Of a stretch of 64,000 bases of DNA, positions 7,001 through 54,841 are shown in pieces. Position 1 is the stretch's first letter. Every line of letters begins with the position of its first letter. Both the position numbers and the translations under genes were made by a program. A model generated the notes under the pieces. That model saw only the letters and a program-made list of their open reading frames with translations. It ran no database searches and was not told the DNA's origin. The stretch is from Eledone cirrhosa (taxonomy: Eukaryota): the NCBI GenBank assembly GCA_964016885.1, contig OZ024755.1, positions 4,588,001 through 4,652,000 on the forward strand, in the 5' to 3' direction.

Positions 7001-10000
7001 TCGCCATTTTTTCTGTTCAAACCAGCCGTATTTTACTGACTCCTGAAAGATAAATGTAAGGTTGACACTGGCAAGATTTAAATTCAGAACAGTATGGTGC
7101 CAAACTAGATACACTGAATTGATCAAATATCTAGATTGGTTTTTAAACAAGATGTTTCTTTACTTATATAATTTAGTTAATGTCTTGATTTAACTTGAAG
7201 TAAATTATCACATAATTAAAGTAAAATAAAGTTATAAAACTATGACAGTTCTATGAAAATAATTCTTTCTAATTTTCTATTCCAGAAAAATAGTGAAGAA
7301 ATCACAGACTTACAGGCTGAATTCGAACGCCGGGCAATGGAAATTGAAAAAAAATATGATAAGAAAATGGAAGCTCTGCGTGATGAATTGGAACTGAAAC
7401 GTAAAGTTGAGATTCATGAAATTGAAGAACGCAAAAACAGTCAAATTATTACCCTGATGAAGAACCATGAAAAAGCATTTAGTGATATTAAGAATTACTA
7501 CAATGATATTACACTAAATAACCTTGCTTTGATTAATACACTCAAGGTAAAAACACAGTTTAATTAATTTCACCCTCATTAATACTTTCAATATCTCAAA
7601 ATATTCCCCATAATCTTAACACATCAACATCATGACCACAGTTGAACTTTTCTGACAAAGTCTCTCTGCAATTCATGATTTTCCATTGCTCCTTACTGGT
7701 TTCCTGTGAGTCGGTTTCATACATTATAAAATAAATAGGATGGGTTGGGGTTTCAATATGTAAACTAAATGACTAATTCTGGTTTTCAAAATATATCAAC
7801 AGAGACAATCTAGACAAAATGACCCTGCTTATTCCACCCTTACCCCCTATTATTTTGGACACAAGAGTATCTGTGGTACACTGGTACAGAAACCAAAATG
7901 AAAGCTATCTATGTTTTTCTTTATTCAATGAAACCATTTGATATTTTTCTCATCTTAAACTCTACAAGAGTCTTTTTTTCATTAGTTTCACCAATAGTTA
8001 TATTTATATTATTTAAAACCTCATGAAATCTTACATATTGGTGCTATGTAACTCCAGTTAGTACTTACTGCTCAAGCAGACATTTAACAAACAAAAACAC
8101 ACACAAGGCAGGAGTTATGTAAAGGATTAACATTTTCAAATTAAATATTAATAACTTCTGTAACAAAACCAGAAAAGTAATGGCAATCTATGTTTCAGGA
8201 ACAAGTAGAAGACATGAAAAAGAAAGAAGAACGCCTTGAAAAGCAGATGGCTGATTTAATTACAGAAAATAAACGTTTAACTGAGCCTTTACAACGAGCC
8301 CGAGAAGAAGTTGAAGAACTGCGGAAAGCTCTTGCTAACTATGAAAAAGATAAACAATGTCTGAAGGTAGATATAATGCCGACAGTCTAAATTTTATTTC
8401 TTATTTTTAAAATGTATTCAAGAAAAGATAAACAAGATATTTGCTAGATATGGTGGGTTGTACCATTACAGTACACTGGAATCTTGAGTCGTGAACTTAA
8501 GGACGTTATCTGAAAGGTTCATAAACTGAAACAATTTTTCCCATACAAAATGTTGAGAGAGAGAGACTGTGTGAAAGACAGATAGATATCACCATAGTAA
8601 CTAACTACACAGTGACACTTTCCTGCCGATTCTACAAGGTTGTTGCCAGCTTGAGACACTGTTTGTCAATCGAGATTTTTTATGTTCGGAAAAATTATTC
8701 ATTAACCGATTTGTATGAGCAAGAAACGGTCACCTAAACTGACTTATCTCACAACAGAACATCTTGTCTAACCAATGCTAGTGTGGAAAAATAGATGTTA
8801 AATGGTGATGATGATGGGGATTATTTATATATGTACACGAGTAAACATACACATACAAATATATTTTTACATTTTCCTTTCTTTTCAGATGACGAAAGCC
8901 AGATTAAAAGTGACCATAGAAGAATTAAAAGCATTACAATGGGAACATGAGGTCCTTGAGCAACGATTTGAAAAGGTTTCGACTTTATATCCACTCTCTT
9001 TTATTTCTTTGATGCTAGGGTAAAGGGTTAAGACCCCCTTCAGTTGCAAATGACCATAAGATTTGCACCTGGAAAGTTCTTTCCTGAGGCACAAGTCCAG
9101 GCAAGGTTGTTTGTTGAAGACTCACCCATGAATACCAGTCTTCTCTCCTCTCCACCAATGGTGTACAAACCATATATAATTAATTCTGAAGTAAAAGAAT
9201 GAGCAGTTATAAATATTTTAACAGTTTTAGCCTTATAGTATTTAAACCAGCCATAATTGGCCACTCACACCAATGTTAAGATATTGTTCTCAAAAAAAAT
9301 GATCTCAAAGATTTGATATTATGTGAGATAAAATCTTTACTGTGAAAATACTATAGTAAATATATAGAGAGTAATGTAAATGCTAAAGGGTTAAAGATTG
9401 TTGGTTTTTTTCTTTATTCTCTAGATTCAGGAAGAGAGAGATGAATTATATAACCAGTTTGTGAAATCTATTCATGAAGTGCAACAGAAAAGTAACTTCA
9501 AGAATCTTCTCTTGGAGAAAAAGATGCTCACACTTACAGAATTGCTTGAACAGAAAGAAGGTCAACTCAACGAAGTTCTCTCTTGCTCTAACCTTGATCC
9601 CTCGGCTCTCAACATGATCACACATAAACTTGAAGTAAGTACGACGTTTCAGAGCCTAACAGTAAATATTTTAATGGATCTTTGTTGACTCTAAGGCTGA
9701 CCTTGTCTTGCTCATACGGGAACTGATTTTGGCTTGATTTCTACAACTGGACACCCTTCCTAACACCAACCTCATTTACAGTGTGGTCTGGGTGCTTTTT
9801 TGTCATGACACCTCCACGACCACTTTGCAGTGGGAGGGGATGGGGGCATATTGCCTATATGCTTCGGCTTCGGCTTGTTCCCGTGGGAAGTCGGGTGTGT
9901 GTGTATGTATGTACCACTGCTGTTTGACAGGTTTGCTTTTCATCCTGCAGGGTGTCCTAAAAGGGCAGAGGAACTTTTTTTGTGGGGGACAGTGAAATGG

Positions 10001-27488: not shown

Positions 27489-27664
27489 GCTACTACTACT
27501 ACTACTACTACTGCTGCTGCTGCTACTACTACTACTGCAGCTACTACTGCTGCTGCTGCTGCTGACTACTACTGCTGCTGCTACTACTACTACTGCTGCT
27601 GCTGCTGCTATTGCTACTACTACTACTGCTGCTGCTGCTACTACTATGACAGAGATAAGAATAA

Positions 27665-27731
<67 letters not shown>

Positions 27732-27750
27732 AGTATATATATGTATGTAA

Positions 27751-27802
<52 letters not shown>

Positions 27803-27821
27803 TTACATACATATATATACT

Positions 27822-27888
<67 letters not shown>

Positions 27889-28063
27889 TTATTCTTATCT
27901 CTGTCATAGTAGTAGCAGCAGCAGCAGTAGTAGTAGTAGCAATAGCAGCAGCAGCAGCAGTAGTAGTAGTAGCAGCAGCAGTAGTAGTCAGCAGCAGCAG
28001 CAGCAGTAGTAGCTGCAGTAGTAGTAGTAGCAGCAGCAGCAGTAGTAGTAGTAGTAGTAGTAG

Positions 28064-28064
<1 letters not shown>
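27489..28064. repeat. Perfect 576-bp palindrome centred in (TA)n
   Basis: Arms mirror about 27776/27777 (coordinate sum 55553) at every point I checked; the opposite-strand ORFs 27228..27812 and 27741..28139 translate identically across the arms. Confidence 0.92.
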
Positions 28065-39010: not shown

Positions 39011-39894
39011 GGAACACCTGTAAGTTAAAGGTATTTCGTTTGTGAACATACCATGTTTTGTTTACATACGTCTACAATGGTCCACGGTGCCGTTCTTTCT
39101 AAAGACTTGATTAAAGGGAATGAATTTGGCTGCTATTTCTAGCAAGTCGATCGATCACGTAGTGGCTCTCTCGTTGCGTCATAAACTCACTCAATTGGTG
39201 TGTATCGAATATATAGAGAAAAAGTCGACGAACAAACTGACCCACGGCACGTGTAAGACGCATATTTAAATATAGAACTTCACGTACAGGTGGGAAAAGA
39301 GAGAGTGTATGTGAGAGAGAGGGAGTGTGTGAGAGGAGAGTATGTGTGTTTCAGAGAGTGTGAGAGGACAGTATGTGTGTTTCAGAGAGAGTATGTGTTT
39401 CAGAGAGACAGTATGAGGGGGAAAAGAGGAAGTGTGTGTGTGTGAGAGGGAGAGTAAGAGTGTGTGTGTCTAAGAGAGAAAGAGAGAGTATGAGGGGGAA
39501 AAGAGAAAGTGTTTGTGTGTGTGAGGAAGTGAGAGCGTGCGTGAGAGAGAGAGAAAGCGAGAAAGAAAGTGTGAGAGAGAATAAGACTGTGTGTAAGATA
39601 GAGAGAGAAAGAGAAAGAGACAGTAAGAGTGTGTGTGTGTGAGAGAAAGTGATAGCCTAAGAGTGTGTATGTATGAGAGAGAGAGAGAAAGAGTGGGGGT
39701 GAATAATTAAGCGTTTTCTCCAATTGCAAATGTCGTATTGTAAGCGTTCGGTGGTGGAGAGTGAGAATTTGTGTTTGTGTCGCCTCCTCTGGTTGGCTTA
39801 TTAAATAAGTTAGTTACTAGTACGCACTCTTAGAGAGTATTACTTGTAAAATTGATTCCATTCTAATCGCTGTGTTTATTTATGGTTACCCAGG

Positions 39895-39987
39895 ATGAGG
39901 ATATCGTGCCTGATTTCTGAGGCAAACGATGTGGTCCATGAAGTCCTCGTCAAACAGAAAGCCAAGGGGCAAGATTGCCTTGATCAA
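39895..39987 (+). CDS. MYLIP: First coding exon of E3 ubiquitin ligase MYLIP/IDOL (dnr1-like), FERM N-terminus; partial gene
   Basis: ATG...CAA|gtaagt encodes MRISCLISEANDVVHEVLVKQKAKGQDCLDQ, which aligns with my recollection of human MYLIP [29 protein letters not shown] and ends at a perfect phase 0 donor. No downstream exon was found in the window. Confidence 0.8.
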
Positions 39988-40327
39988 GTAAGTACACAGA
40001 TTTTGCAAAGCTTCACGCTTTTAGCTTTTTTATATTTTTCTTCTCATTCTTACTTGAAGCTTTAATTATCAAATCCAATTTATACACCGAACGTACCTAG
40101 AAATACGTGCATAAACCATACTAAACACACACACACACGGATATATATATATATATCATCATCATTTTACCTTCGCTTTTCCCTGCTTGGAAGGGTGGGA
40201 CATATATATAATATAGAAATGGCTTCTACAGGACTAGAACTGTTTCATTCGAAGGCAATCATCTGCTATGTGTTGAGTACCTTACTTACTGTGGTTACCC
40301 CCGATTGAACCTGGGATACACACACAC

Positions 40328-41949: not shown

Positions 41950-41980
<31 letters not shown>

Positions 41981-42014
41981 TAATAAATGGAAACTATATT
42001 TATAAAACCATATT

Positions 42015-42080
42015 TATTTTATTATACATATTTCAAGGGCAACCAAGGCAAATTATGGTGCGCTTTCATCAGATAAAATA
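42015..42080 (-). ncRNA. Type I minimal hammerhead ribozyme (copy A1)
   Basis: Minus strand: UAUUUUAU-CUGAUGA-AAGCGCACCA...UGGUUGCCCUU-GAA-AUAUGUAU-A-AUAAAAUA. 8-bp stem I, intact core, near-palindromic stem III, AUA cleavage triplet. Confidence 0.72.
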
Positions 42081-42146
42081 CAGATTTGTTTTATAAATAA
42101 ATAAATATTGACATACCCGGAATCCCAACAAATTAAATATAACCTC

Positions 42147-42190
<44 letters not shown>

Positions 42191-42467
42191 GAGAGAGAGA
42201 GAGAGACAGAGACCCTTCGGTCACGAATGACCATGGGATTTGTACCCTCCGGGGCACAAACCTGGGCAAGGTGTGTTTGTAGAAGACCAACAGTCACCTA
42301 TGTATACCAGTCTTCCCTCTCTCCATACCACCGATGTTGTCCAAGGTAAAGGTAATGGCTGATACAAGCTCGGCACCAGTGACATTGTAACTCATATCTA
42401 CAGCTGAGTGAACTGGAGCAACGTGAAATAAAGTGTCTTGCTCCAGAACTCAACGCAAAGTCCGGTC

Positions 42468-42501
<34 letters not shown>

Positions 42502-43267
42502 CTGTTTAGGGAATGAAACGTCCAGTTACTTGAGATTCTCTAGAGTGGGCACTAGATGCGTAGTTTCCAGTAGGTATATTGTTGTGATAATAATAAAAAG
42601 GACGCTGTGTTCGATCTTCATTACATTTATTGAGGTGCGACGCGCATTTCGCGATTGATCAGCTCGATTTGTATCGATCGGGCCCGACTCTGGAATTAAA
42701 AGCTCGTCGGACTTCTGTAACAGTAATATATATATATAATATATATATATGTGGTGACCCCCCCCCCCCTCCAAAAAAAATCAATGTACACACACTTTGA
42801 ATGGTGATATAAAAACAATGTTTATATAGAGTATTAAAGTTTTTTGTTATTCAAGACAAAGTAGTCAGGCTTATGATATTTTCAGTTATGACAAGTGTTC
42901 AAAATAATGACAATTCATTGCTGATAAAAGATGGTTGGAATATAGATGACTGAATTATTTCGTTTGGTATTTGGGTGCAATCCCTTTCAATCATATTTCG
43001 CCAGGTACCACTCACAAAATTACAACTTTTCGGTCTATATAATCTTAATTTTTCAATCTATATATTTGATTATATTTGCTCTGCATTTCCAATTTTTTCT
43101 CTTAAAAAAAAAAATCTAACTTTTCCTCAGACTAATAAACATATTGAGCTAATTCTGATATATAATTTGTTTACATACATTCGAGATTCGAGCTTTCTGT
43201 GTGTGTGTGTGTGTATATATATATACAATATATTAACAAATGGAAACTATATTTATAAAACCATATT

Positions 43268-43333
43268 TATTCTATTATACATATTTCAAGGGCCACCAAG
43301 GCAAATTATGGTGCGCTTTCATCAGATAAAATA
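43268..43333 (-). ncRNA. Type I minimal hammerhead ribozyme (copy A2)
   Basis: Same core as A1. Stem II is AAGCGCACCA/UGGUGGCCCUU; stem I has one G-U pair. Confidence 0.72.
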
Positions 43334-43447
43334 TAATACAGATTAGTTTTATAAATAAATATTGACATACCCTGAAAAAAAGACAACCTTAACGGTTGGA
43401 GCTTCCTGGATAAGCTTGTTAAATCCCAACAAATTAAATATAACCTC

Positions 43448-43488
<41 letters not shown>

Positions 43489-43901
43489 ACAGAATGTGAC
43501 AAGGCTGGCCTTTCGAACTACAGGTACAACTCATTTTTGCCAGCTAAAAGGACTGGGAGCAACGTGAAATAAAGTGTCTTGTGTATATATGTGTGTGTGT
43601 GTATATATATATATAAATGAAAGTATAGAAATTATTGTGAGCGTGAAGCCAACAGTATTTCATAATATATAAGTGACTATAACGTCAAAATGGAAATTAA
43701 TTAACGTAAGATGTGGGAAAATAATTCAAACTCAATTAAAAAAAGATCAAGACAGATTTATCCATAGAATTTTGTGAAATCCAGGGAAAAATCAATAGAG
43801 CCTTAACTTTGAATAAAATAAAGTTTAAATACTCATCCTTCAATTTGGAAAAACTATATATACACTAATTTAAGGTATCGTAGCATATATATATATATAT
43901 G

Positions 43902-43981
<80 letters not shown>

Positions 43982-44650
43982 GGCTTATGCCCGAAACGTC
44001 GTTCCCCACCCCACTCTCAAGAGCGTAAAACTAATAAACCTTTGTTCGTACTGCCTCTCTGTTTTGTTCCCGTTCCATTTTTCACTATATATACACACAC
44101 ATACACACACACTAATTTAAGGTATCATAGCATATATATATATATACACACACACATATATACACACACACATAATGTTTTTATCACTATTCAAAATGTG
44201 TATACATTTGTTTTGGGACACCCTGTTTGTAGAAGAAAACAGGTTTAGTAAATAGTAGGAAATATTGTCATTTTCCTATCCCGATCGCTATATGTCAATA
44301 ATAATAGCTGTGGCCTTTTTTCTTCTCCTTCCTCTGTATATATATGTCATATAAACTGCCAACTGTTGTTTAGTAAGACATTCTGAATAAAACAGAATGG
44401 CAGGTAGACAAAATTTTAATGTAAAAAGTGAGTCTTGTTACTCCAGAATTTTACCTGCTTGCTCACTTGCGCCATATTCGGAGCTAAGTTTAATTGATAG
44501 TAAGTAGGAGGAAAAATAATTAGTTTCTACTGAAATCGATGGGGGTGTTCTATAAATTTATCTTAATATATATCCATTTGTATAGGATGGCTTTCTTCTA
44601 AAGAAATCTGTATGTCTATCTATCTACCTGTCTGTCTATCTACCTAGATC

Positions 44651-45348
44651 TGTCCCGGATGCGTGTGCGACGAGGAAACCATTGCACACGCTTTGGTACA
44701 CTGCTCGGGCATTGCCGATCTGTGGGGCTATGTCGAACAACTGCTGTCAAGGGTGGGACCGATCCGGTTGACTACCGAGTCTATTGTAACGATCAAGCCG
44801 CCTCCCCTCTTCAAAAACGAAGGAGAGGCGGTGTTTCTGTGCGTAATAGCCATGGCGAAAGAGGTTGTATGGTGGACGCGTCTGAAAGGACTGAGGTCAG
44901 ACACTTTTCTCTCTGGCCAACAACTGGTCCGTTTCTTCCGATATCATTTCGGAAGAAGGATCAGGATGGAGAGAGAGGTGCTGCACCCCAGCCGTTTTTA
45001 TGAAAGATGGGTGAAAGTGGCGAGAATGGCCCGTGTGAATGGGCCTTCACTCTACATCAGACTATAGGTGAGGAAGATGAAAGACCAAGGGAGCACCCCC
45101 TCTCTGTGCTCCTGAGGCGAAGGGTTGCACACTTTTTTTTCGAGGGTGTGTGCGACCCCCCCCCCCCCCCCCCCCCCCCAAGGCGCCTCCTCTCTATTGA
45201 GGACTTTGTTATAAATTTTATTTTTTGTTATATTTTATTTTATTTTTATATATTGTTATTGCCTCCTCCTCATTGAGGACGCCTTGTTTTGTAAACTCCC
45301 CCCATTGTACTTGTCCCACTTTTGATGCCCTGGTGGCAAATAAAAGAA
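44651..45348 (+). mobile_element. L1/Tx1-like LINE 3' end (zinc knuckle plus 3' UTR)
   Basis: CP..C..DEETIAHALVHC...LWGYVEQLL...AKEVVWWTR...F.ERWV, then a poly-C tract and AATAAA, embedded in a TCTA-type microsatellite. Confidence 0.8.
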
Positions 45349-45349
45349 A

Positions 45350-46057
45350 CATATCTATATATCTACCTGTCTACCTGTCTGTCTATATATCTACCTGTCT
45401 ATATATCTACCTGTCTATATATCTACCTGTCTGTCTATCTACCTGTCTGTCTATCTACCTGTCTATCTATATATCTACCTGTCTGTCTATATATCTACCT
45501 GTCTGTCTATATATCTACCTGTCTGTCTATATATCTACCTGTCTATCTATATATCTACCTGTCTGTCTATATATCTACCTGTCTATCTATATATCTACCT
45601 GTCTATCTATATATCTACCTGTCTGTCTATATATCTACCTGTCTATCTATATATCTACCTGTCTGTCTATATATCTACCTGTCTATCTATATATCTACCT
45701 GTCTATCTATATATCTACCTGTCTGTCTATATATCTACCTGTCTGTCTATCTATCTACCTGTCTGTCTATCTATCTACCTGTCTGTCTATCTATCTACCT
45801 GTCTGTCTATCTATCTACCTGTCTATCTATCTATCTACCTGTCTATCTATCTATCTATCTATATATCTATCTGTCTGTCTATATATCTACCTGGCTATAT
45901 ATCTACCTGTCTGTCTATCTACCTGTCTATCTATATATCTACCTGTCTATATATCTGTCTACCTGTCTGTCTATCTACCTGTCTATCTATATATCTACCT
46001 GTCTATATATCTGTCTACCTGTCTGTCTATCTACCTGTCTGTCTATCTACCTGTCTG
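45350..46057. repeat. TCTA-derived 20-bp minisatellite (atatctacctgtctgtctat)
   Basis: About 35 units. Confidence 0.93.
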
Positions 46058-46202
46058 TCCGGCTGCTTTTGGAATTTGTGCTTTGTTATTGTCCGAAAAT
46101 AGATACATAAATATATATGTTTAATTATATAGATTGACTGTCAGACTGATATAGAGATAGCTAGACAGGTAGGTAAGTAGGCAGGTAGGTAGGTAGATAG
46201 AT

Positions 46203-46507
46203 AAATTTCTTTATTAGCCACAAGGACACAAAAGAAGGGGACAAATACAAATGGGGAGTTTACATACAGGTATATGAAAATAAAACTATTAATACAATAA
46301 CAAATAACAATTGAAATCCCAAATAGGGAGGAGGTGTTACACAGGGGTTGTACACACCCCGAAAAAATGTACAACCCTCATCTCCAGGAGCACCAAGAGT
46401 GAGTACTCCCCTCCTCTCTTCCTCTTTTTCCTCAACCTACAGGCTTATATAGAGAGAAGGCCCAACCACTCGGGCCATCTTTGCCACATTCACCCACCTT
46501 TTATAAA
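46203..46507 (-). mobile_element. Second Tx1-like 3' end, inverted relative to 44651-45348
   Basis: Reverse complement ttttataaaaggtgggtgaatgtggcaaagatggcccgagtg matches about 44996-45040 and ends gtggctaataaagaaa. Confidence 0.75.
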
Positions 46508-46894
46508 AGGTAGGTAGCTAGGTAGAGAGATATATAGATAGGTAAGTAGGTAGAGAGGTAGGTAGGTAGGTAGATGGATAGGTAGAGAGATAGATAGATA
46601 GATAGGTTGATTGAGTAATAGATAGGTAAGGTAGATATTTTATTGACTTTTATTTTCAAGATACCAGCATCAGAAAATAGGTTGTACCTCATGCTGGTGC
46701 CATGATAAATAGCACCCAGTCTACCCAGTCTACCCCGTAAAGTGGTAGTGTTGGTGTCACGACGAAACATTCCACTCTGTAAGGTGGTATTGCTGGTGCC
46801 ACAACAAATGTGTGTGTGTGTATATATATATATACATATTAATAATTCAAGAAAACACTAGTTAAATAGGGACATTTGTATTTCAGTCATGTGT

Positions 46895-47580
46895 TGTTAA
46901 TGTTGAGCTGTGTCTGTTGATTTTGAGCTGTGCCCATTGATGTTGAGCTGTGCCCATTGATGTTGAGCTGTGCCCATTAATGTTGAGCTGTGTCTGTTGA
47001 TGTTCAACTGTGTTTGTTGATGTTGAACTGTCTTAAAGTTGAACTGTGCCCATTAAAGTTGAACTGTGCCCATTAAAGTTGAACTGTGCCCATTAATGTT
47101 GAGCTGTGCCCGTTAATGTTGAGCTGTGCCCGTTAATGTTGAGCTGTGCCCGTTAATGTTGAGCTGTGCCCGTTGATGTTGAGCTGTGTCTGTTGATGTT
47201 CAGCTGTGTTTGTTGATGTTGAACTGTCTTAAAGTTGAACTGTGCCCATTAAAGTTGAACTGTGCCCATTAAAGTTGAACTGTGCCCATTAAAGTTGAAC
47301 TGTGCCCATTAAAGTTGAACTGTGCCCGTTAATGTTGAGCTGTGCCCGTTAATGTTGAGCTGTGCCCGTTAATGTTGAGCTGTGCCCGTTAATGTTGAGC
47401 TGTGCCCGTTAATGTTGAGCTGTGCCCGTTAATGTTGAGCTGTGCCCGTTAATGTTGAGCTGTGCCCGTTAATGTTGAGCTGTGCCCGTTGATGTTGAGC
47501 TGTGTCTGTTGATGTTGAGCTGTGTCTTGATGTTCAGCTGTGTCTTGATGTTCAGCTGTGTCTTGATGTTCAGCTGTGCT
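46895..47580. repeat. Minisatellite, 20-bp unit tgttgagctgtgcccgttaa
   Basis: About 34 units with higher-order block duplication. Confidence 0.94.
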
Positions 47581-48309
47581 TGCTCTGATTCTACTGAACA
47601 ATGTAGCATTCATTCTATTTATTTATATTTGGGGAGGGTCATTTCAGACAAACCTTTCTATTATAGAACTTATTTCCTTGCTATTGTTAAGTTCTAATAA
47701 AACTGGTTCATCACTGTTTAACGTCCATTTTTTTCACACTAGCATGGGTTAGACAAGTTGTCCCGTTGTAAGACAAGCCAGATCAGATGACTATATCTTG
47801 CTCACACTGGACCAATTTTGGCGTGGTTTCTATGGCTGGATGCCCTTCTTAATGCCAACCACCTTCTGAGTTGAATCAAGTCCTGTGGGTCCCATCCCAA
47901 TAAAACTAATCTCCTGACCACCTCATCAGCATAGTTTTGATTTAAATGAGTGGGCAGTTAAAATCCTCTTATAAATATAACATGGAGAGGGATGGTTTCT
48001 TACTAAGCTGGCTTAACTAAAGATTATTCTAGATTAGGACAAACCATCTAAATTGGTGCCACTCTGACCAAATGGGTTATGAGGCTCACCGACACCTTTA
48101 ATTTACTTAAACCAGTAAATAATTGATATAAAAATTCATTGACAATTAAAATAACTCATACATACACATATTTGTTAGCCAGCTGTCTCATGTTTTCTTT
48201 AATAAACTTAAGATGGTAATAGTTTGTTCATAAAAAACGAGAATGATGTGTTGAGGTTCTGTATAGTTTTCATTTATTTATTAACATTGTGTCTGAAGAT
48301 GTGATGGAT

Positions 48310-48793
48310 CATCCCCTGTCAACTTGGTACCCAAGACATCGCCATCCCCTGTCAACCTGGTACCCAAGACATTGCCATCCCCTGTCAACCTGGTACCCAA
48401 GACATTGCCATCCCCTGTCAACCTGGTACCCAAGACATTGCCATCCCCTGTCAACCTGGTACCCAAGACATTGCCATCCCCTGTCAACCTGGTACCCAAG
48501 ACATTGCCATCCCCTGTCAACCTGGTACCCAAGACATTGCCATCCCCTGTCAACCTGGTACCCAAGACATTGCCATCCCCTGTCAACCTGGTACCCAAGA
48601 CATTGCCATCCCCTGTCAACCTGGTACCCAAGACATTGCCATCCCCTGTCAACCTGGTACCCAAGACATTGCCATCCCCTGTCAACCTGGTACCCAAGAC
48701 ATTGCCATCCCCTGTCAACCTGGTACCCAAGACATTGCCATCCCCTGTCAACCTGGTACCCAAGACATCGCCATCCCCTGTCAACCTGGTACT
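48310..48793. repeat. Minisatellite, 33-bp unit ccatcccctgtcaacctggtacccaagacattg
   Basis: About 14.5 nearly identical units. Confidence 0.96.
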
Positions 48794-49854
48794 CTAGAGC
48801 TCTCCATCTCTTGTAAACCTGGTACTCTATTGACTACACAAATTAATTGTCTCACCTATACAACACACCTTTATCACCAGAAATGGTAGAATTCTAGACT
48901 ACATCACAGTATTTATAGTTTTGTCATATTCTCAGTTCAAATCCTACTTGAGGCTGATGTTTGCTTTCCATCTCTCTGTAATCAATAGAATACCAGTTGG
49001 TAATGTTGATTCAATCAACACTACGCCCCTCCTTTCCTACAATTCTTGTCCTACTTCTCTAAAGACCAGAGATAAAAATATTAATGAAATTAAGATGGTA
49101 GTGTGGCAAATATAGTCGTATTATGCTAGACTAAATAAATGTTTTCTTTCGTCCTTCTACAACCAAGATTCATCTCTTATCAAGGTTGAATTTTGTCATC
49201 ATTCCAGTTATCAATAAAATAACTGCCATTATTCCACTGATTATATTCCTTCCGTGTCAATTTGTCCAATGTAAGAGATCAATATTTTTAGGTGTGGTAA
49301 GAAAATCATCATCATCATTTAATGTTATTTTTTTCTATGCTTGCCTGGGTTAGAAGGGTTTTCATGTTATGAGTCAAGTCAGGTTCGGAGACCATGTCTT
49401 GCTCATATGGATCTTATCTGATCTGTATTTTGGCTTGGTTTCTACAGCTGTTAGTGTTGACTGGGTGATTTTTATCATGCCACCGAAATAACTATCTAAC
49501 AGGGTGGATTGGGTGCTTTTTGTTGTCACCAGCACAACCACCTAACAGGGTGCTTTTGTCATGTCACCAATGCAAATCAGGTTAGTAATGAAATGAGCAA
49601 GGAAAGAATTAATACTTAAAAAGAATTCATCTCCTCTCCTACACATACAATTTTGTTTTAACTATAGCGTTAGAGATGTTTAAGTCAAACTTTTAAACCA
49701 TTTCAATCTTATCTCCATCCAAGTACTAAGTACTGCCCTGTCTTCCTGATTTAAGCTATATAAAGACAAGATTATTCAATACACCTGTAAAACTTAGATG
49801 TGAAAATTAGTTGAACTAAGAATTAAGACTGTTATAGATTCTCTTTGCTATGAG

Positions 49855-50440
49855 TTCACTATCACACTTTACAGTCACATTATCACACTTTACAGTCACA
49901 TTATCACACTTTACAGTCACATTATCACACTTTACAGTCACATTATCACACTTTACAGTCACATTATCACACTTTACAGTCACACTAACACACTTTACAG
50001 TCACACTACCACACTTTGGTCTTTCTACAGTCACACTACCACACTTTGGTCTTTCTACAGTCACACTACCACACTTTGGTCTTTCTACAGTCACGCTATA
50101 ACACTTTAGTCACACTACCACACTTTGGTCTTTCTACAGTCACACTACCACACTTTGGTCTTTCTACAGTCACACTACCACACTTTAGTCTTTTTACAGT
50201 CACACTACCACACTTTAGTCTTTTTACAGTCACACTACCACACTTTAGTCTTTTTACAGTCACACTACCACACTTTGGTCTTTCTACAGTCACACTACCA
50301 CACTTTGGTCTTTCTACAGTCACGCTATAACACTTTAGTCACACTACCACATTTTGGTCTTTCTACAGTCACACTACCACACTTTAGTCACACTACCACA
50401 TTTTGGTCTTTCTACAGTCACACTACCACACTTTAGTCAT
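49855..50440. repeat. Compound minisatellite, 21-bp then 30-bp units
   Basis: cacactttacagtcacattat followed by cacactaccacactttggtctttctacagt. Confidence 0.93.
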
Positions 50441-51624
50441 AAAGTAGAAATAAGGATTATCTTTAGTATACGGTATCTGTTTTATGAACCCCAGAAGGAT
50501 GAAAAGCTAAGTTAACTACGACACAATTTGTAAAGATAACCAGTTAAACACTGTATTGTATTTAGTCCCTATGGCTACTAGTAGCTACTATTTGTATAGC
50601 AGCAGCAGCAGTATTAGTGGTAGTAGTAGTAACAGTAGTGATTGTAATGTTTTCTAACATAAACACAAAGTCGGATATTTTTATTTTTAGGTTGAGTGAA
50701 GTTGAAACTAACCTCATTGTTTGACTAGTAGCTTCCATTGCTCCACCGTGTAATAAAATACTTTAAAATCATTTACTGTGTCATTATGCTGCCCCTACAT
50801 CCCGTCCCTCACCTAACGTTGCTCTATTAATAATAGTAATAATAATAATAATAATGGTTTCTTTATTGGCCACAAGGGCTAACATGAAGAAAAACATTAC
50901 AGACGGCACAGAACGGTACAGGACAATACAAAGTGGGTTTTGGCCGTGTAAAAAAAAAAGGTTACAACGACAACAACGACAACAATAATAATAATAATGA
51001 TCTAAACTATAATAAATAGTAATCGGTGGATAGATTACGAGCAAAACCAACCTGCAGGAGACTCAGGGGTAGACCCTGAGTTTGGCTGGTCACGCTTGGG
51101 GATGTGGAGACGTTTGCTTATGACAGGACCCACTGGAAGGAGTGTTTGAGGACTCTGTCACCCCCACCCCCCACCCCTGTCCCAACACTTTCGGGGGGCG
51201 GGGGTAAGTGAGTGAAGTAATAATAATACTAGTAGTAAAATGTGAATCCTAAACTGAAGGCTTATTCAGGTCAATCTATATTTACTGGTGTTAATTGATA
51301 GGAAGAGAAAATGAGAAGAATTGATGTTTACTGACAAATCAATAGATATTTTTATTATGGACTTTACCTATTATTGGTTTTGGTCAACTGATTGCAGCCA
51401 TGCTGGGAGCGGCTCTGCTTTCAAGGGTTTAATCAATCATATCTTTTTGCCCAGCAGCTGAGCTCATGCTGATATCCATTCATCGTTGAAACAGCATCAG
51501 CTCAGCTGTCGGACACTAACTATTTACAATACATACGCTACACTTTCCCAAATATTGAGTATTTAGTTGAACATGATCTTACTGGTCTAAACTGGCCACT
51601 TCCAATATATATATATATATATAT

Positions 51625-51895
51625 ATTTATTAAAATAACAGATTAAAGTTTAAGCAAAGAATCGCTGCTTTCACCCTTAACGGGATCTTCTGAAACTAAC
51701 AAAGTCAATCTGTGAACGCAGAAGTAAATATTTCAAAAAACGTTGCAGCCGGAGGAAGTCGGGAAGACGATACTTTGGTTAGTTTTAGGTATGTTTTCCT
51801 GCTTGGTACGGGTATGTTCTTCGTAGAAATATTCAGATGTTGTTTCTGCCTGATGAATATGTCAATAGAGTGCTCAACCGAGGGAGCCAAATAGT
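51625..51895 (-). mobile_element. Penelope-like element fragment between (TA)n tracts
   Basis: Frame LNISTKNIPVPSRKTYLK resembles the S.KNIP.PS...Y N-terminal motif of Penelope-like ORFs. The adjacent CAGAAGA-UCCC(guuaa)GGGU-GAAA is a hammerhead-like remnant; the same end occurs at about 21040-21100. Confidence 0.5.
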
Positions 51896-51929
51896 AATAT
51901 ATATATATATATACTAACTAAGAACATAG

Positions 51930-52610
51930 ATTTTACATGTGGCCGGTGCTCTGGTGCAATAAGTAGCAGCAAGTGCCCACAAACTACTAGCTCTTTCAAT
52001 TGCGCAGAGGGTTCTATAGAAATAGTGGACAGCTTCCGTTACCTGGGCGATAAAATCAGCAGTGGGGGAGGGTGCTCTGAAAGTACTGTAGCTAGAGTCA
52101 GAACTGGTTGGAAAAAGTTCAGAGAGCTTATACCACTATTAGCTGCTAAAGGGTTCTCACTAAAAATGAAAGGCAGGTTGTACGATGCCTGCATACGAAC
52201 AGCAATGCTGCATGGCAGTGAGACCTGGGCATTGTGTGCAGAGGATATACGCAGACTAGAGAGGAACGAAGCTTGCATGCTCCGCTGGATGTGTAACAGT
52301 AATATACGTGAACGGCAAAGCATAAACGAACTAAGGAATAAATTAGAGATAAGAGGGATCAGATGTTGTTTACTCGAGAGAAGGCTACGTTGGTATGGAC
52401 ACGTGATGCGCATGAAAGTCGATAGCTGTATAACAAAGTGCAGGGCAATAAAGATAGACGGTAGTCACGGAATAGGCAGACCTAGAAAAACCTGGGACGA
52501 GCTGATAAACTCCGACATCACACACTTACACCTCTCCAAGACAATGTCACTGGACCGAGACCTTTGGCGGTACTCAGTAACAGAGAAGACCCGCCTTACC
52601 TAAATATATA
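51930..52610 (+). mobile_element. RTE LINE, 5'-truncated, C-terminal RT region (192-codon open frame)
   Basis: VDSFRYLG...ARVRTGWKKFREL.P.L...KGRLYDACIRTAMLHGSETW...MLRWMC...[11 protein letters not shown]...GRPRKTW...DRDLWR. Confidence 0.9.
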
Positions 52611-53173
52611 GTAAAACCTACTCCAGCCAGTAGGCATCTCTAACAAAATACACCCCGTCCCACCACCCCCACCCCCACCCGATCCACACCACCCCGTTCT
52701 ATGTAAAGTTATGTTGGTGCCGCGCCATCGAGGCCGAAACAAATGAGATCGTGTAGGTGTCACGACAAAAAAACACACAGTCCACGCTGTAATGTGGCCG
52801 TGTAGGCAACACGGTAAAAACCTCCCAGACCCACACTGTAAATGTGGTTGGTGTTAGGAAGGGCATCCAACTGTAGAAAACCTGCCAGACAGTCCTATGC
52901 GAGCAAGACAATCACTCTTGCCTCAAGTGGGACTACCCCCGTCCAAACCCATGCAAGCGTGGAACACGGACGTTAAACGTTGATGATGATGATGATGATG
53001 ATGATATATATATGAAGGTCATCCAGCCATAGAAAACTTGCCAAACAAAGAGTAGGAGGACCCTCAGTTGTGTCAAAGGCATGAAAACCTACTATCATCA
53101 TCATCAGGTTTAGCGTCCGTGTTCCACGCTTGCATGGGTTTGGACGGGGGTTTTCCCACTTGAGGCAAGAGTC

Positions 53174-53227
<54 letters not shown>

Positions 53228-53263
53228 TTCAAAATATTAACAAAATATTCTTGTGATCAATTA

Positions 53264-53330
53264 TATTTTATTATACACATTTCAGAGGTACTGAGTTAAG
53301 TTTAACAGTACGTCCTCATCAGATAAAATA
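53264..53330 (-). ncRNA. Type I minimal hammerhead ribozyme (copy B1)
   Basis: UAUUUUAU-CUGAUGA-GGACGUACUG(UUAAACUUAACU)CAGUACCUCU-GAA-AUGUGUAU-A-AUAAAAUA. Confidence 0.75.
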
Positions 53331-53599
53331 GGATGATGCATGACATACCCTGAGATAGTAGATGGTTAAGATTCAGTGATGGTAGTGATTAACTTATGAC
53401 AAAACTCAATATTTATACCCTAATATTGAGAACATGAGATAATATAATACAAACAATAGAGAGGGTGTGTGTAATAGAGTGTAAAAAATACATGGCATCA
53501 ATATAACAGTTAAAGCACTCAACCCTTTCTGTTGAGTGCTTCCAATCTATTGTAAAACTCATTCTTTGATGTATTCATTAAACCTTGTTTAACTTTTAA

Positions 53600-53671
<72 letters not shown>

Positions 53672-54311
53672 TCAACATAAAAAATGGATGAGTTGCAAAA
53701 TGTTGAGTGCTTTTCCTACTATTACATCATGGTTAATTATACGGAATGACCAGTTCTATCCAGTGGTGAACCACCAAACCTAAATGTATATGTATACACA
53801 TTTTGATTACCTGTTGAGGCAATATTTATTAGAATGGTGTTGAAGTGTGTATAGATTTTTTGGAACACCCTGTGTGTGTATATATATATATATTTGGAGG
53901 CACATGGCTTAGTGGTTAGAGCATTGGCCTTGCAATCGAAAGGTTGTGAGTTCAATTCTCAGACTGGGTGATGTGTTGTTTCCTTGAGCAAGACACTTTA
54001 TTTCACATTGCTCCAGTTTACTCAGCTGTAGAAATGAGATGATAGGGACTGGGGTCCCTATCATTCAACTGTCAAGTGGTCATGGAGGTGCCATGGCAAA
54101 AAAGCACCCAGCACTCACTGTAAATGAGGTTGGTGTTAGGAAGGGCATCCAGCTGTAGAAATCAAGCCAGAATCAGTTCCCGTCCCACCCTTGCAAGCAG
54201 GGACAAGCGGACGTAAAATGAAATGATGATGAATGATGATGATATATATATATATATATATATATATTAATTCAAAATATTAACAAAAATAGACATTCGT
54301 GTGATCAAGTA

Positions 54312-54378
54312 TATTTTATTATACATATTTCAGAGGTACTGAGCTATCTTCAACAGTACGTCCTCATCAGATAAAATA
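54312..54378 (-). ncRNA. Type I minimal hammerhead ribozyme (copy B2)
   Basis: UAUUUUAU-CUGAUGA-GGACGUACUG(UUGAAGAUAGCU)CAGUACCUCU-GAA-AUAUGUAU-A-AUAAAAUA. Confidence 0.75.
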
Positions 54379-54698
54379 AGATGCTGCATGACATACTCTG
54401 ACTTAGTAGATGGTTAAGATAACTGTTGAGTGCTTCCAATCTATTGTAAAACTCTTTCTTTGATTTATTCATTGAACCTTGTTTAACCTTTAAATATATA
54501 TATATATAGATTTAATACAATAACAGAGATAGTTTAAAGCTAAACTCTGACTGGTAACCATCTCACTCAACAAACATTAGGTTATATTAAAATATAAACC
54601 CAATTTAAGTGTTTGGGGTGCTAACAATATGTATAATGTGGAAAAGCCAGTTGTATTATTTTATGAGATATAATTAAAGTTAAAGTATATCTCTCTTA

Positions 54699-54743
<45 letters not shown>

Positions 54744-54841
54744 GAAAATATAGAAATTATTGTGAGCTAGAAGCCAATAGTATTTCATAATATATATGTG
54801 ACTATAACGTCAAAATGGAAAAATAACATGCTCATCATACG

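Follow-up and report, generated by a model that had tools for sequence, protein, structure and literature searches.

Paired hammerhead motifs in an Eledone cirrhosa window probably represent separately inserted 3' ends of two Hydra-type Penelope-like element families

Results

Hammerhead motifs in a predicted host intron

The window (i.e., the whole 64-kb stretch of Eledone cirrhosa DNA that we analyzed) contained exactly four matches to a type I hammerhead descriptor when both strands were searched, all on the minus strand (A1, A2, B1, and B2; Table 1). The same descriptor found no match in any of 200 block-wise dinucleotide shuffles of the window. Each motif has an 8-bp stem I (with one G-U pair in A2), the CUGAUGA and GAAA core, and an AUA triplet, and the motifs are spaced by 1253 nt (A1 to A2) and 1048 nt (B1 to B2). 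An earlier, sequence-only reading of this DNA had described these shared features and both distances, and our analysis agrees with it. It also agrees that stem II differs in sequence between A and B and yet pairs in both, since each folds into 3 bp, a C-C mismatch, and approximately 6 bp. The closing pair of stem II is A-U or G-U, in contrast to the usual G-C.

The 8-mer of helix III is self-complementary and has a 2-nt loop, which would restrict its formation to a duplex of two molecules. For this duplex, the predicted energy is -2.2 kcal/mol for A1, A2, and B2 and +0.6 kcal/mol for B1. Thus, the earlier description of all four hammerheads as intact holds for the catalytic cores but is doubtful for B1 as a whole. 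The lowest-energy predicted dimer is a non-catalytic pairing between 5' segments. In an Rfam scan of the window, hammerhead families were absent at an E value of ≤1, and the matches obtained came from microsatellite look-alikes and from the tRNA-like head of one SINE; recognition of all four hammerheads is by the descriptor alone.

The motifs lie downstream of a predicted exon with the start of a FERM domain (Table 1). The next predicted exon matches FERM_N positions 26 to 63 (E value, 3e-11), and a RING exon follows 3 kb further on (E value, 5e-12). The predicted intron of this predicted FERM-RING gene, from position 39988 to window-equivalent position 71401, would contain all six ends of families A, B, and C, each in antisense orientation.

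TABLE 1 Features of the window (., no strand assigned)
Feature	Positions	Strand	Remarks
Predicted host exon, FERM domain start	39894..39987	+	AG/GT signals; FERM_N positions 5-28, weak (E value, 0.002)
A1, 5'-truncated 3' end of family A	41975..42122	-	96.6% to 3' end of ORF-bearing L075
A1 hammerhead	42015..42080	-	Descriptor match; AUA triplet ends at 42023
A1 inverted tail (~31 bp), then (TA)n	42120..42151	+	100% to L074/L075 tail; orientation opposite to body
Spacer A SINE-like interspersed repeat	42210..42467	.	Parts match ≤33/138 unrelated loci
A2, 5'-truncated 3' end of family A	43221..43412	-	93.7% to L075; other sub-lineage than A1
A2 hammerhead	43268..43333	-	Descriptor match; AUA triplet ends at 43276
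A2 inverted tail (42 bp)	43411..43452	+	Breakpoint unlike A1
C1, truncated 3' end of family C	43617..43856	-	Ends before ribozyme
B1, 5'-truncated 3' end of Hydra-type family B	53215..53514	-	94.7% to 3' ends of ORF-bearing L042, L044
B1 hammerhead	53264..53330	-	Descriptor match; AUA triplet ends at 53272
B1 inverted tail	53529..53601	+	98.6% to L044 tail
Spacer B tRNA-headed SINE, (ATG)n end	53881..54250	+	Rfam tRNA match at 53903-53966; ≤38/138 loci match
B2, 5'-truncated 3' end of family B	54264..54420	-	8.8% divergent from B1
B2 hammerhead	54312..54378	-	Descriptor match; AUA triplet ends at 54320
B2 inverted tail	54423..54495	+	
C2, last 80 bp of family C	54742..54821	-	Without ribozyme

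Composition of the window copies

Each A or B copy in the window retains the final 150 to 300 bp of an element, joined to an inverted stretch of tail, and lies within (TA)n; the body-tail breakpoint is distinct in every copy. The repeats of 170 to 380 bp bordered by (TA)n that had been noted earlier were recovered at approximately 175 to 385 bp with those borders, but they are composites of an element 3' end and an inverted tail. Beyond its SINE-like repeat, spacer A contains a microsatellite, a weak repeat, and approximately 430 bp unmatched among the fetched loci (positions 42752 to 43192; matches in 0 of 138 loci). The rest of spacer B is made up of (TG)n, (TA)n, and one further repeat. The two spacers are unrelated to each other, are found beside no other family copy, and do not resemble the element bodies.

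Families A and B across the genome

Exact-match hammerheads number 8,264 for family A and 6,209 for family B genome-wide (reversed-pattern control, 0). Full-length copies (approximately 4 to 4.7 kb; unit length, 4.5 to 4.7 kb in B and approximately 4 kb in A) comprise a pLTR with a hammerhead, a tail, an RT-nuclease ORF, a 3' UTR of 1.5 to 2 kb, and a hammerhead, which lies 55 to 60 nt from the element end. The hammerhead near the 3' end, the insertion in (TA)n, the pLTR, the inverted copy, and the tail match Hydra-type Penelope-like elements (PLEs). Both families are apparently uncatalogued, and they may already carry Repbase or Dfam names; identity with Hydra-1_Obim is ruled out by a different hammerhead and length.

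The RT-nuclease ORF lies on the hammerhead strand in family B (L042, L044, and L136 to L138) and in family A (L071 and L075; 51 to 64% identical to the B fragments). One unbroken frame of 750 aa yielded a predicted fold (pLDDT, 79.5) for which telomerase RTs make up all five top PDB matches; PDB sequence searches (protein, then profile) gave no relevant match. With Pfam, neither an RT nor a GIY-YIG match reached significance on the ORF pieces (RVT_1 on family A, E value of 0.07), and GIY-YIG was matched in 3 of 32 aligned homologues without a match in the query. Read by eye, a VY...YIG...F..R...H motif lies C-terminal to the RT. DKT replaces DKG in L042, L045, L075, and L131, and RWR, not RWK, is present in L042 and L075. 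The CxCx5C linker occurs in L042, L044, L071, and L075 (the third C is changed in L131), and CxxC and CxH, which in the Hydra definition surround conserved E and N residues, occur in L044 and L131. As to the insertion-in-fingers and the nuclease CCHH, both of which the Hydra clade lacks, reading by eye showed two RT motifs 64 aa apart, versus 65 in Hydra-1_Obim, and a single C in the first nuclease strand. The only animal-named protein match was from Argonauta hians. Within the window, tblastn at an E value of ≤1 detected no RT or nuclease traces.

Judged by protein motifs, A and B appear to be Hydra-type Penelope-like families. The proposed link of the repeats to Penelope RT/GIY-YIG ORFs was found in the ORF-bearing full-length copies of both families, and the proposed kind of element, a (TA)n-associated, Penelope-like retroelement, is upheld. 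On this sequence evidence, we regard the A and B motifs as real dimer-type hammerheads of such an element.

Relationships and spacing of the pair members

Of 41 dispersed copies, 31 are closer to A1 than A2 is. Of 21 dispersed copies, 20 lie closer to B1, and 19 closer to B2, than these two lie to each other, although this comparison is biased in that many loci were fetched as best matches to A1 or B1. By substitutions alone, none of the 41 sampled copies is closer to A2 than A1 is (3.5%, tied with two others); thus, the separate origin of A2 is argued from diagnostic sites and indels. A2 and a copy approximately 185 kb away (L086) share diagnostic sites and a 5-nt insertion absent from A1. 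Two copies at another locus (L012), from one event, are near-identical. The partners A1/A2 and B1/B2 are, by these comparisons, not sister copies.

Pairing was assessed on the first 100 exact matches listed per family, all on one contig, and on 400 kb of DNA flanking the window. Among the listed matches, a same-strand family partner at 0.9 to 1.4 kb was found for 0 of 100 A and 0 of 100 B copies, which does not support the earlier expectation of same-strand pairing beyond chance. No family partner lay within 6 kb for 71 (A) and 68 (B) of the matches listed, which also included 15 (A) and 14 (B) head-to-head inverted pairs and short same-strand tandems (65, 205, and 679 bp). Cross-family A-B neighbors within 6 kb amounted to 7 pairs at 5 places among the matches listed (approximately 1.3 expected); one such pair is on the same strand, 1330 bp apart, with an unrelated spacer. 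A hammerhead of another family lies within 1.5 kb at 9 of 37 loci (approximately 2.2 expected). Copies of different families thus cluster approximately fourfold. In 3 of the 37 loci, an additional A- or B-like motif lies on the same strand (at 378, 700, and 1073 bp). Two same-family, same-strand pairs within 12.5 kb, both with a C stub after them, are a rarer arrangement than mean density predicts, and the fourfold clustering accounts for only part of that excess; the 400 kb flanking the window contain 8 such motifs.

A third family with tandem hammerhead units

The approximately 85-bp element that had been noticed after both pairs occurs in two copies (94% over 80 bp), but it belongs to a separate family, C, whose end it forms. 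The unit of family C is 627 nt long, is arranged in tandem, and includes a canonical type I hammerhead; the copies in the window are without the ribozyme. We rejected the element as a common part of the pairs, given that C is a separate family (1,636 candidates) and that different repeats lie between the C stub and A2 or B2. Tandem units with hammerheads were found at L139 and L140 (3.2 units), and the 100 listed of 105 exact matches included two tandem pairs, spaced 626 and 628 bp apart. In a 605-nt stretch of one unit, the three sense frames are riddled with stops. The retrozyme idea fits family C, which we consider a candidate retrozyme on sequence grounds. No cephalopod precedent for it was found in our literature searches; "octopus" has 0 occurrences in the main text of one preprint (10.64898/2026.07.22.740005), whose species list includes four invertebrates.

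Discussion

The four motifs are very probably clipped 3' ends of two high-copy Hydra-motif PLE families, each likely inserted separately in (TA)n. Because the ends of both families are common, truncated, and probably landed separately, the pattern is an ordinary one, and it is likely no device for excising RNA circles. By analogy with PLE work in other species, the element nuclease would nick AT-rich DNA, the RT would begin at an internal site close to the tail, and premature termination accompanied by inversion would leave a short dead copy between (TA)n tracts. The flanking (TA)n would offer fresh targets on which several families pile up. The hammerhead would be a passenger in the window copies; in a full partial-tandem element, it would function through dimerization or with the aid of a protein. 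The common strand likely stems from antisense orientation in the host intron, either because sense copies were selected against or by chance.

The sequence-only reading took each pair as a retrozyme- or pLTR-like layout that could excise an RNA of 1.05 to 1.25 kb. As one mobile unit, retrozyme- or LTR-like, a pair would release an RNA of 1253 or 1048 nt that would be circularized and re-inserted. The shared strand and family, the similar spacing seen twice, and the intact core fit this idea, as does a helix III possible only in a dimer, and dimers in a Schistosoma example cleave weakly in vitro (PMC4209133). However, the spacers are neither conserved nor repeated beside other copies, the inversion junction differs from copy to copy, the partners are not sisters, 0 of 200 copies are so paired among the matches listed, and a transcript of the predicted host gene would carry the motifs in antisense. 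As a mobile family, such a unit is largely refuted, and we give it next to no credence; independent solo Penelope fragments in TA tracts, the outcome that reading had named as contradicting it, are largely what we found. If an antisense transcript spanned a pair, the separately arrived ribozymes could still act jointly and release the spacer by accident, as a linear or a circular RNA; the intact cores and the compatible A1/A2 palindromes speak for this. Such excision is very unlikely in view of the weak helix III, the non-catalytic best predicted dimer, the A-U or G-U closure of stem II, and an anole PLE hammerhead that cleaved only with its protein (PMC11167929).

It is about equally improbable that each pair is a decayed partial-tandem insertion or local duplication spread by SINEs and microsatellite growth. 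Spacer B does consist wholly of microsatellites and interspersed repeats, and short same-strand tandems do occur, but one-event copies elsewhere are near-identical, while B1 and B2 have diverged and A1 and A2 differ at diagnostic sites, and each copy carries a separate inverted tail. A tandem duplication of a 1.2-kb segment was rejected, as the spacer and downstream flank are unrepeated.

Families A and B resemble the Hydra clade, including Hydra-1_Obim of Octopus bimaculoides (PMC8557442), in the single RT plus C-terminal GIY-YIG ORF, in DKT, RW(K/R), CxCx5C, CxxC, and CxH (protein similarity judged by eye), in the sense-strand type I hammerhead near the 3' end, in (TA)n targets, and in the partial tandem, the inverted 5'-truncated copy, and the tail; stem II of Hydra-1_Obim is likewise closed by A-U. 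They differ from that clade in length (approximately 4 to 4.7 kb with a 1.5- to 2-kb 3' UTR, versus typically <3 kb, and 2507 bp in Hydra-1_Obim), in tails of approximately 75 to 100 nt (versus 30 to 40), and in copy numbers in the thousands. Minimal, dimeric type I hammerheads of metazoan PLEs (PMC4209133) share the palindromic helix III and likewise occur in genomes mostly as solo copies, with opposite-strand pairs 100 to 700 bp apart and same-strand pairs around an RT ORF. Unlike these, A and B have an 8-bp stem I, no bulge before stem II, an R-U first stem II pair, and a pyrimidine mismatch at the fourth position of stem II, which is kept in most local families. Helix III varies among families and yet remains palindromic, which supports the dimer model.

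In metazoan non-LTR retrozymes, as described in PMC7229834 and the main text of 10.64898/2026.07.22.740005, units are likewise non-coding, type I, and head to tail as in family C, whose 627-nt monomer exceeds the 150 to 450 bp reported there and whose hammerhead has a full helix III of 7 to 8 bp. The A and B pairs, in contrast, have no tandem monomers, only 150 to 300 bp of each 1.05 to 1.25 kb is repeated, and the families are autonomous. Plant LTR retrozymes also place two hammerhead-bearing direct repeats around non-coding DNA; however, their hammerheads are of type III, and the twin LTRs that carry them enclose a conserved interior, whereas the window pairs have type I hammerheads, non-sister repeats, and unrelated spacers. 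The pLTR pair of one PLE flanks the ORF or body, while the window pairs have no tblastn match between the repeats. The A and B pairs demonstrate no new system.

Pile-ups of Hydra 3' ends in (TA)n could conceivably be a birthplace of retrozymes, where two same-strand, dimer-dependent hammerheads from separate insertions bracket host DNA that would be excised from antisense RNA, circularized, and copied by the Hydra RT. We hold this to be a long shot; if true, the window would represent the raw stage and family C a finished retrozyme of the same genome. Two Hydra-type families of high copy number and with long 3' UTRs, apparently not yet catalogued, emerge from the analysis, as does one candidate retrozyme from a cephalopod. 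With >14,000 hammerhead copies and near-intact ORFs, the two Hydra-type families offer a natural set for testing selection on PLE hammerheads (e.g., their purging from the sense strand of introns).

Hammerhead motifs and adjacent features

A type I descriptor applied to the whole window found four hammerheads, all on the minus strand (two each of the Penelope-like families A and B; see the table), at the positions proposed by the sequence-only reading, and found none in shuffled window sequence (200/200 shuffles). The motifs share an 8-bp stem I, a core of CUGAUGA and GAAA, and an AUA triplet. Stem II, which had been said to differ in sequence between A and B and to pair in both, has the same computed layout in each (i.e., 3 bp, a C-C mismatch, and ~6 bp), and the spacings, (TA)n borders, and 85-bp element are present as that reading described them. 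The four motifs were not reported by an Rfam search of the window. Helix III, a self-complementary 8-mer, has a loop of 2 nt and therefore could pair only between two copies. The predicted helix III duplex is weak and is turned unfavourable by a substitution in B1; the predicted dimer of lowest energy has a different, non-catalytic pairing.

Features of the window and of one related locus (window coordinates unless a locus is named; extents of A and B copies were mapped on full-length copies)
Feature	Position	Strand	Description
A1	42015-42080 (hammerhead)	-	last 148 bp of element
A2	43268-43333 (hammerhead)	-	last 192 bp of element
B1	53264-53330 (hammerhead)	-	last 300 bp of element
B2	54312-54378 (hammerhead)	-	last 157 bp of element
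C1	43617-43856	-	family C 3' end, ends before ribozyme
C2	54742-54821	-	family C 3' end, ends before ribozyme
Half hammerhead	43981-44075	+	stem II and GAAA, without CUGANGA half; host sense strand; presumably similar to the minimal Penelope-like hammerhead
Other minimal hammerhead	~26715	+	yet another family, 4-bp stems; 3 further copies in 400-kb flanks
FERM-RING gene	39894-39987 (exon), to L101:7402 and L102:517-747	+	predicted; next exon ~31 kb further
GAS-domain gene	8181-9685	+	two exons; growth-arrest-specific, microtubule-binding domain
Inverted repeat	27489-28064		perfect, 288 bp; microsatellites around (TA)n centre
LINE-type 3' fragment	51869-52600	+	matches end of long ORF in L077
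Split family B hammerhead	L022, about 1950-2250	reverse	repeat inserted into TA-rich helix III

Families A and B

In the 3.0-Gb genome, 22- to 23-nt ribozyme patterns gave 8,264 exact matches for family A and 6,209 for family B, while the reversed control patterns gave 0. Stepwise extension upstream of dispersed copies reached coding sequence on the strand that carries the hammerhead; thus, the linkage to a Penelope RT/GIY-YIG ORF that the sequence-only reading had suggested looking for was found in full-length A and B copies. The order in one family B locus (L042) is (TA)n, inverted tail, pLTR with hammerhead, tail (i.e., the short segment following the pLTR), ORF, 2-kb 3' UTR, hammerhead, element end, and (TA)n, and this layout recurs in three others (L136 to L138). 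For family A, most of the ORF was present in 2 of 12 long loci (L071 and L075; 51 to 64% identity to B fragments), with parts in several others. One family B copy retains an unbroken 750-aa frame, and the best structural matches of its protein model (pLDDT 79.5) are telomerase RTs. Pfam detected GIY-YIG in 3 of 32 aligned homologues and RVT_1 in 1 of 32, and matched neither domain in the query itself.

Hydra, as characterized by Craig et al. (2021, PMC8557442), is defined by DKT, RWK, a CxCx5C linker, nuclease CxxC and CxH, a hammerhead, and (TA)n targets, and its listed octopus member is Hydra-1_Obim. These motifs are present in A and B, with RWR replacing RWK, and would place both families in Hydra. 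Compared with Hydra-1_Obim, A and B are longer (about 4 to 4.7 kb) and have a different hammerhead. More divergent RT and nuclease remnants (L079 and L080) are ~40% identical to family B; thus, several Hydra-like lineages coexist in the genome. Further related hammerhead families (L010, L024, L027, L078, and L089) have a common stem I and core; across them, helix III varies without losing its self-complementarity, and most keep a pyrimidine mismatch at stem II position 4.

Each of A1, A2, B1, and B2 is a complete small insertion. An inverted tail piece is joined at the 5' side, with a junction that differs in every copy, and many solo copies among the fetched loci have the same form. 5' truncation, inverted copies, and tails are described as a signature of Penelope-like elements (Craig et al. 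2021, PMC8557442); the tail has been tied to internal RT start sites, and nicking of AT-rich DNA has been shown (Frangieh et al. 2024, PMC11167929). A tblastn search of the window detected neither RT nor nuclease sequence.

Pairing and clustering

The sequence-only reading had taken each pair as a retrozyme- or pLTR-like unit releasing a 1.05- to 1.25-kb circular RNA. The pairs are very probably not such units. In a sample biased towards A1 and B1 matches (41 A and 21 B copies), A1 is closer to 31 of the 41 dispersed copies than to A2, and B1 and B2, which differ by 8.8%, are each closer to 19 to 20 of the 21 others. Substitutions in A2 speak against a separate origin, since none of the 41 copies is closer to A2 than A1 is, but A2 has an insertion and several sites in common with a copy ~185 kb distant. 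The spacers consist of SINEs, microsatellites, and unmatched DNA, and were not found beside other family copies (138 loci). The expected same-strand pairing bias also failed to appear: among the first 100 listed matches each for A and B (one contig, exact matches only), no same-strand pair lay 0.9 to 1.4 kb apart; the patterns used are ones that would detect both pairs in the window. Within 6 kb, 71 A and 68 B copies were solo; 15 A and 14 B pairs were head-to-head inverted, and same-strand pairs were 1661, 3667, and 4025 bp (A) or 65 to 679 bp (B) apart.

Copies of different families, for which a single insertion is hardly a possible source, do cluster. Among the listed matches, A-B pairs within 6 kb numbered 7 at 5 places (~1.3 expected), one of them same-strand, 1330 bp apart, with an unrelated spacer. 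A hammerhead of another family lay within 1.5 kb at 9 of 37 loci (~2.2 expected), and at 3 of 37 another A- or B-like motif lay on the same strand, 378 to 1073 bp away. Around pair A, 13 (TA)n tracts lie within 2.8 kb, where the average is 4.7. Fourfold clustering does not fully account for two same-family pairs within 12.5 kb, which are still rarer than it would predict; only 8 such motifs lie in the 400 kb of flanking sequence. We take this residual rarity to be a selected coincidence rather than the product of a mechanism. Since the predicted FERM-RING gene (which, from its domain layout, we take to be MYLIP/IDOL-like) lies on the plus strand with exons ~31 kb apart, all six A, B, and C ends are antisense within one predicted intron (a 1-in-64 chance if each orientation were a coin toss, calculated post hoc). 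This position is the likely context for the common strand of the motifs.

Family C

The 85-bp element belongs to a third family, of which it forms the 3' end (1,636 candidates for that end). In other copies this family extends through a type I hammerhead of canonical form whose helix III is complete; one ribozyme pattern has 105 exact matches. The unit is ~627 nt (620 to 638 nt) and non-coding in sense frames, and occurs as 1.2-unit partial tandems or arrays of up to 3.2 units (L139, L140, and L047 to L057). Since its units lie head-to-tail with the ribozyme in consecutive units, family C fits the working definition that a 2026 preprint (Li et al., 10.64898/2026.07.22.740005) gives for non-LTR retrozymes, and is a candidate for that class.

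Ribozyme function and novelty

Cervera and de la Pena (2014, PMC4209133) reported that one minimal motif alone did not cleave and that dimers cleaved at a low level, and the solo copies and opposite-strand pairs seen here are exactly their genomic picture. An anole motif required its protein and was dispensable for in vitro insertion (Frangieh et al. 2024, PMC11167929). The window motifs are most likely silent passengers.

Beyond Hydra-1_Obim, literature searches on octopus hammerheads, octopus Penelope/Hydra retrotransposons, and hammerheads and pLTRs of Penelope-like elements turned up nothing describing these families, and neither octopus nor cephalopod occurs in the available text of the 2020 retrozyme paper (PMC7229834). 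The motifs are real and the element is of a known kind; judged against literature descriptions, the families are probably new.
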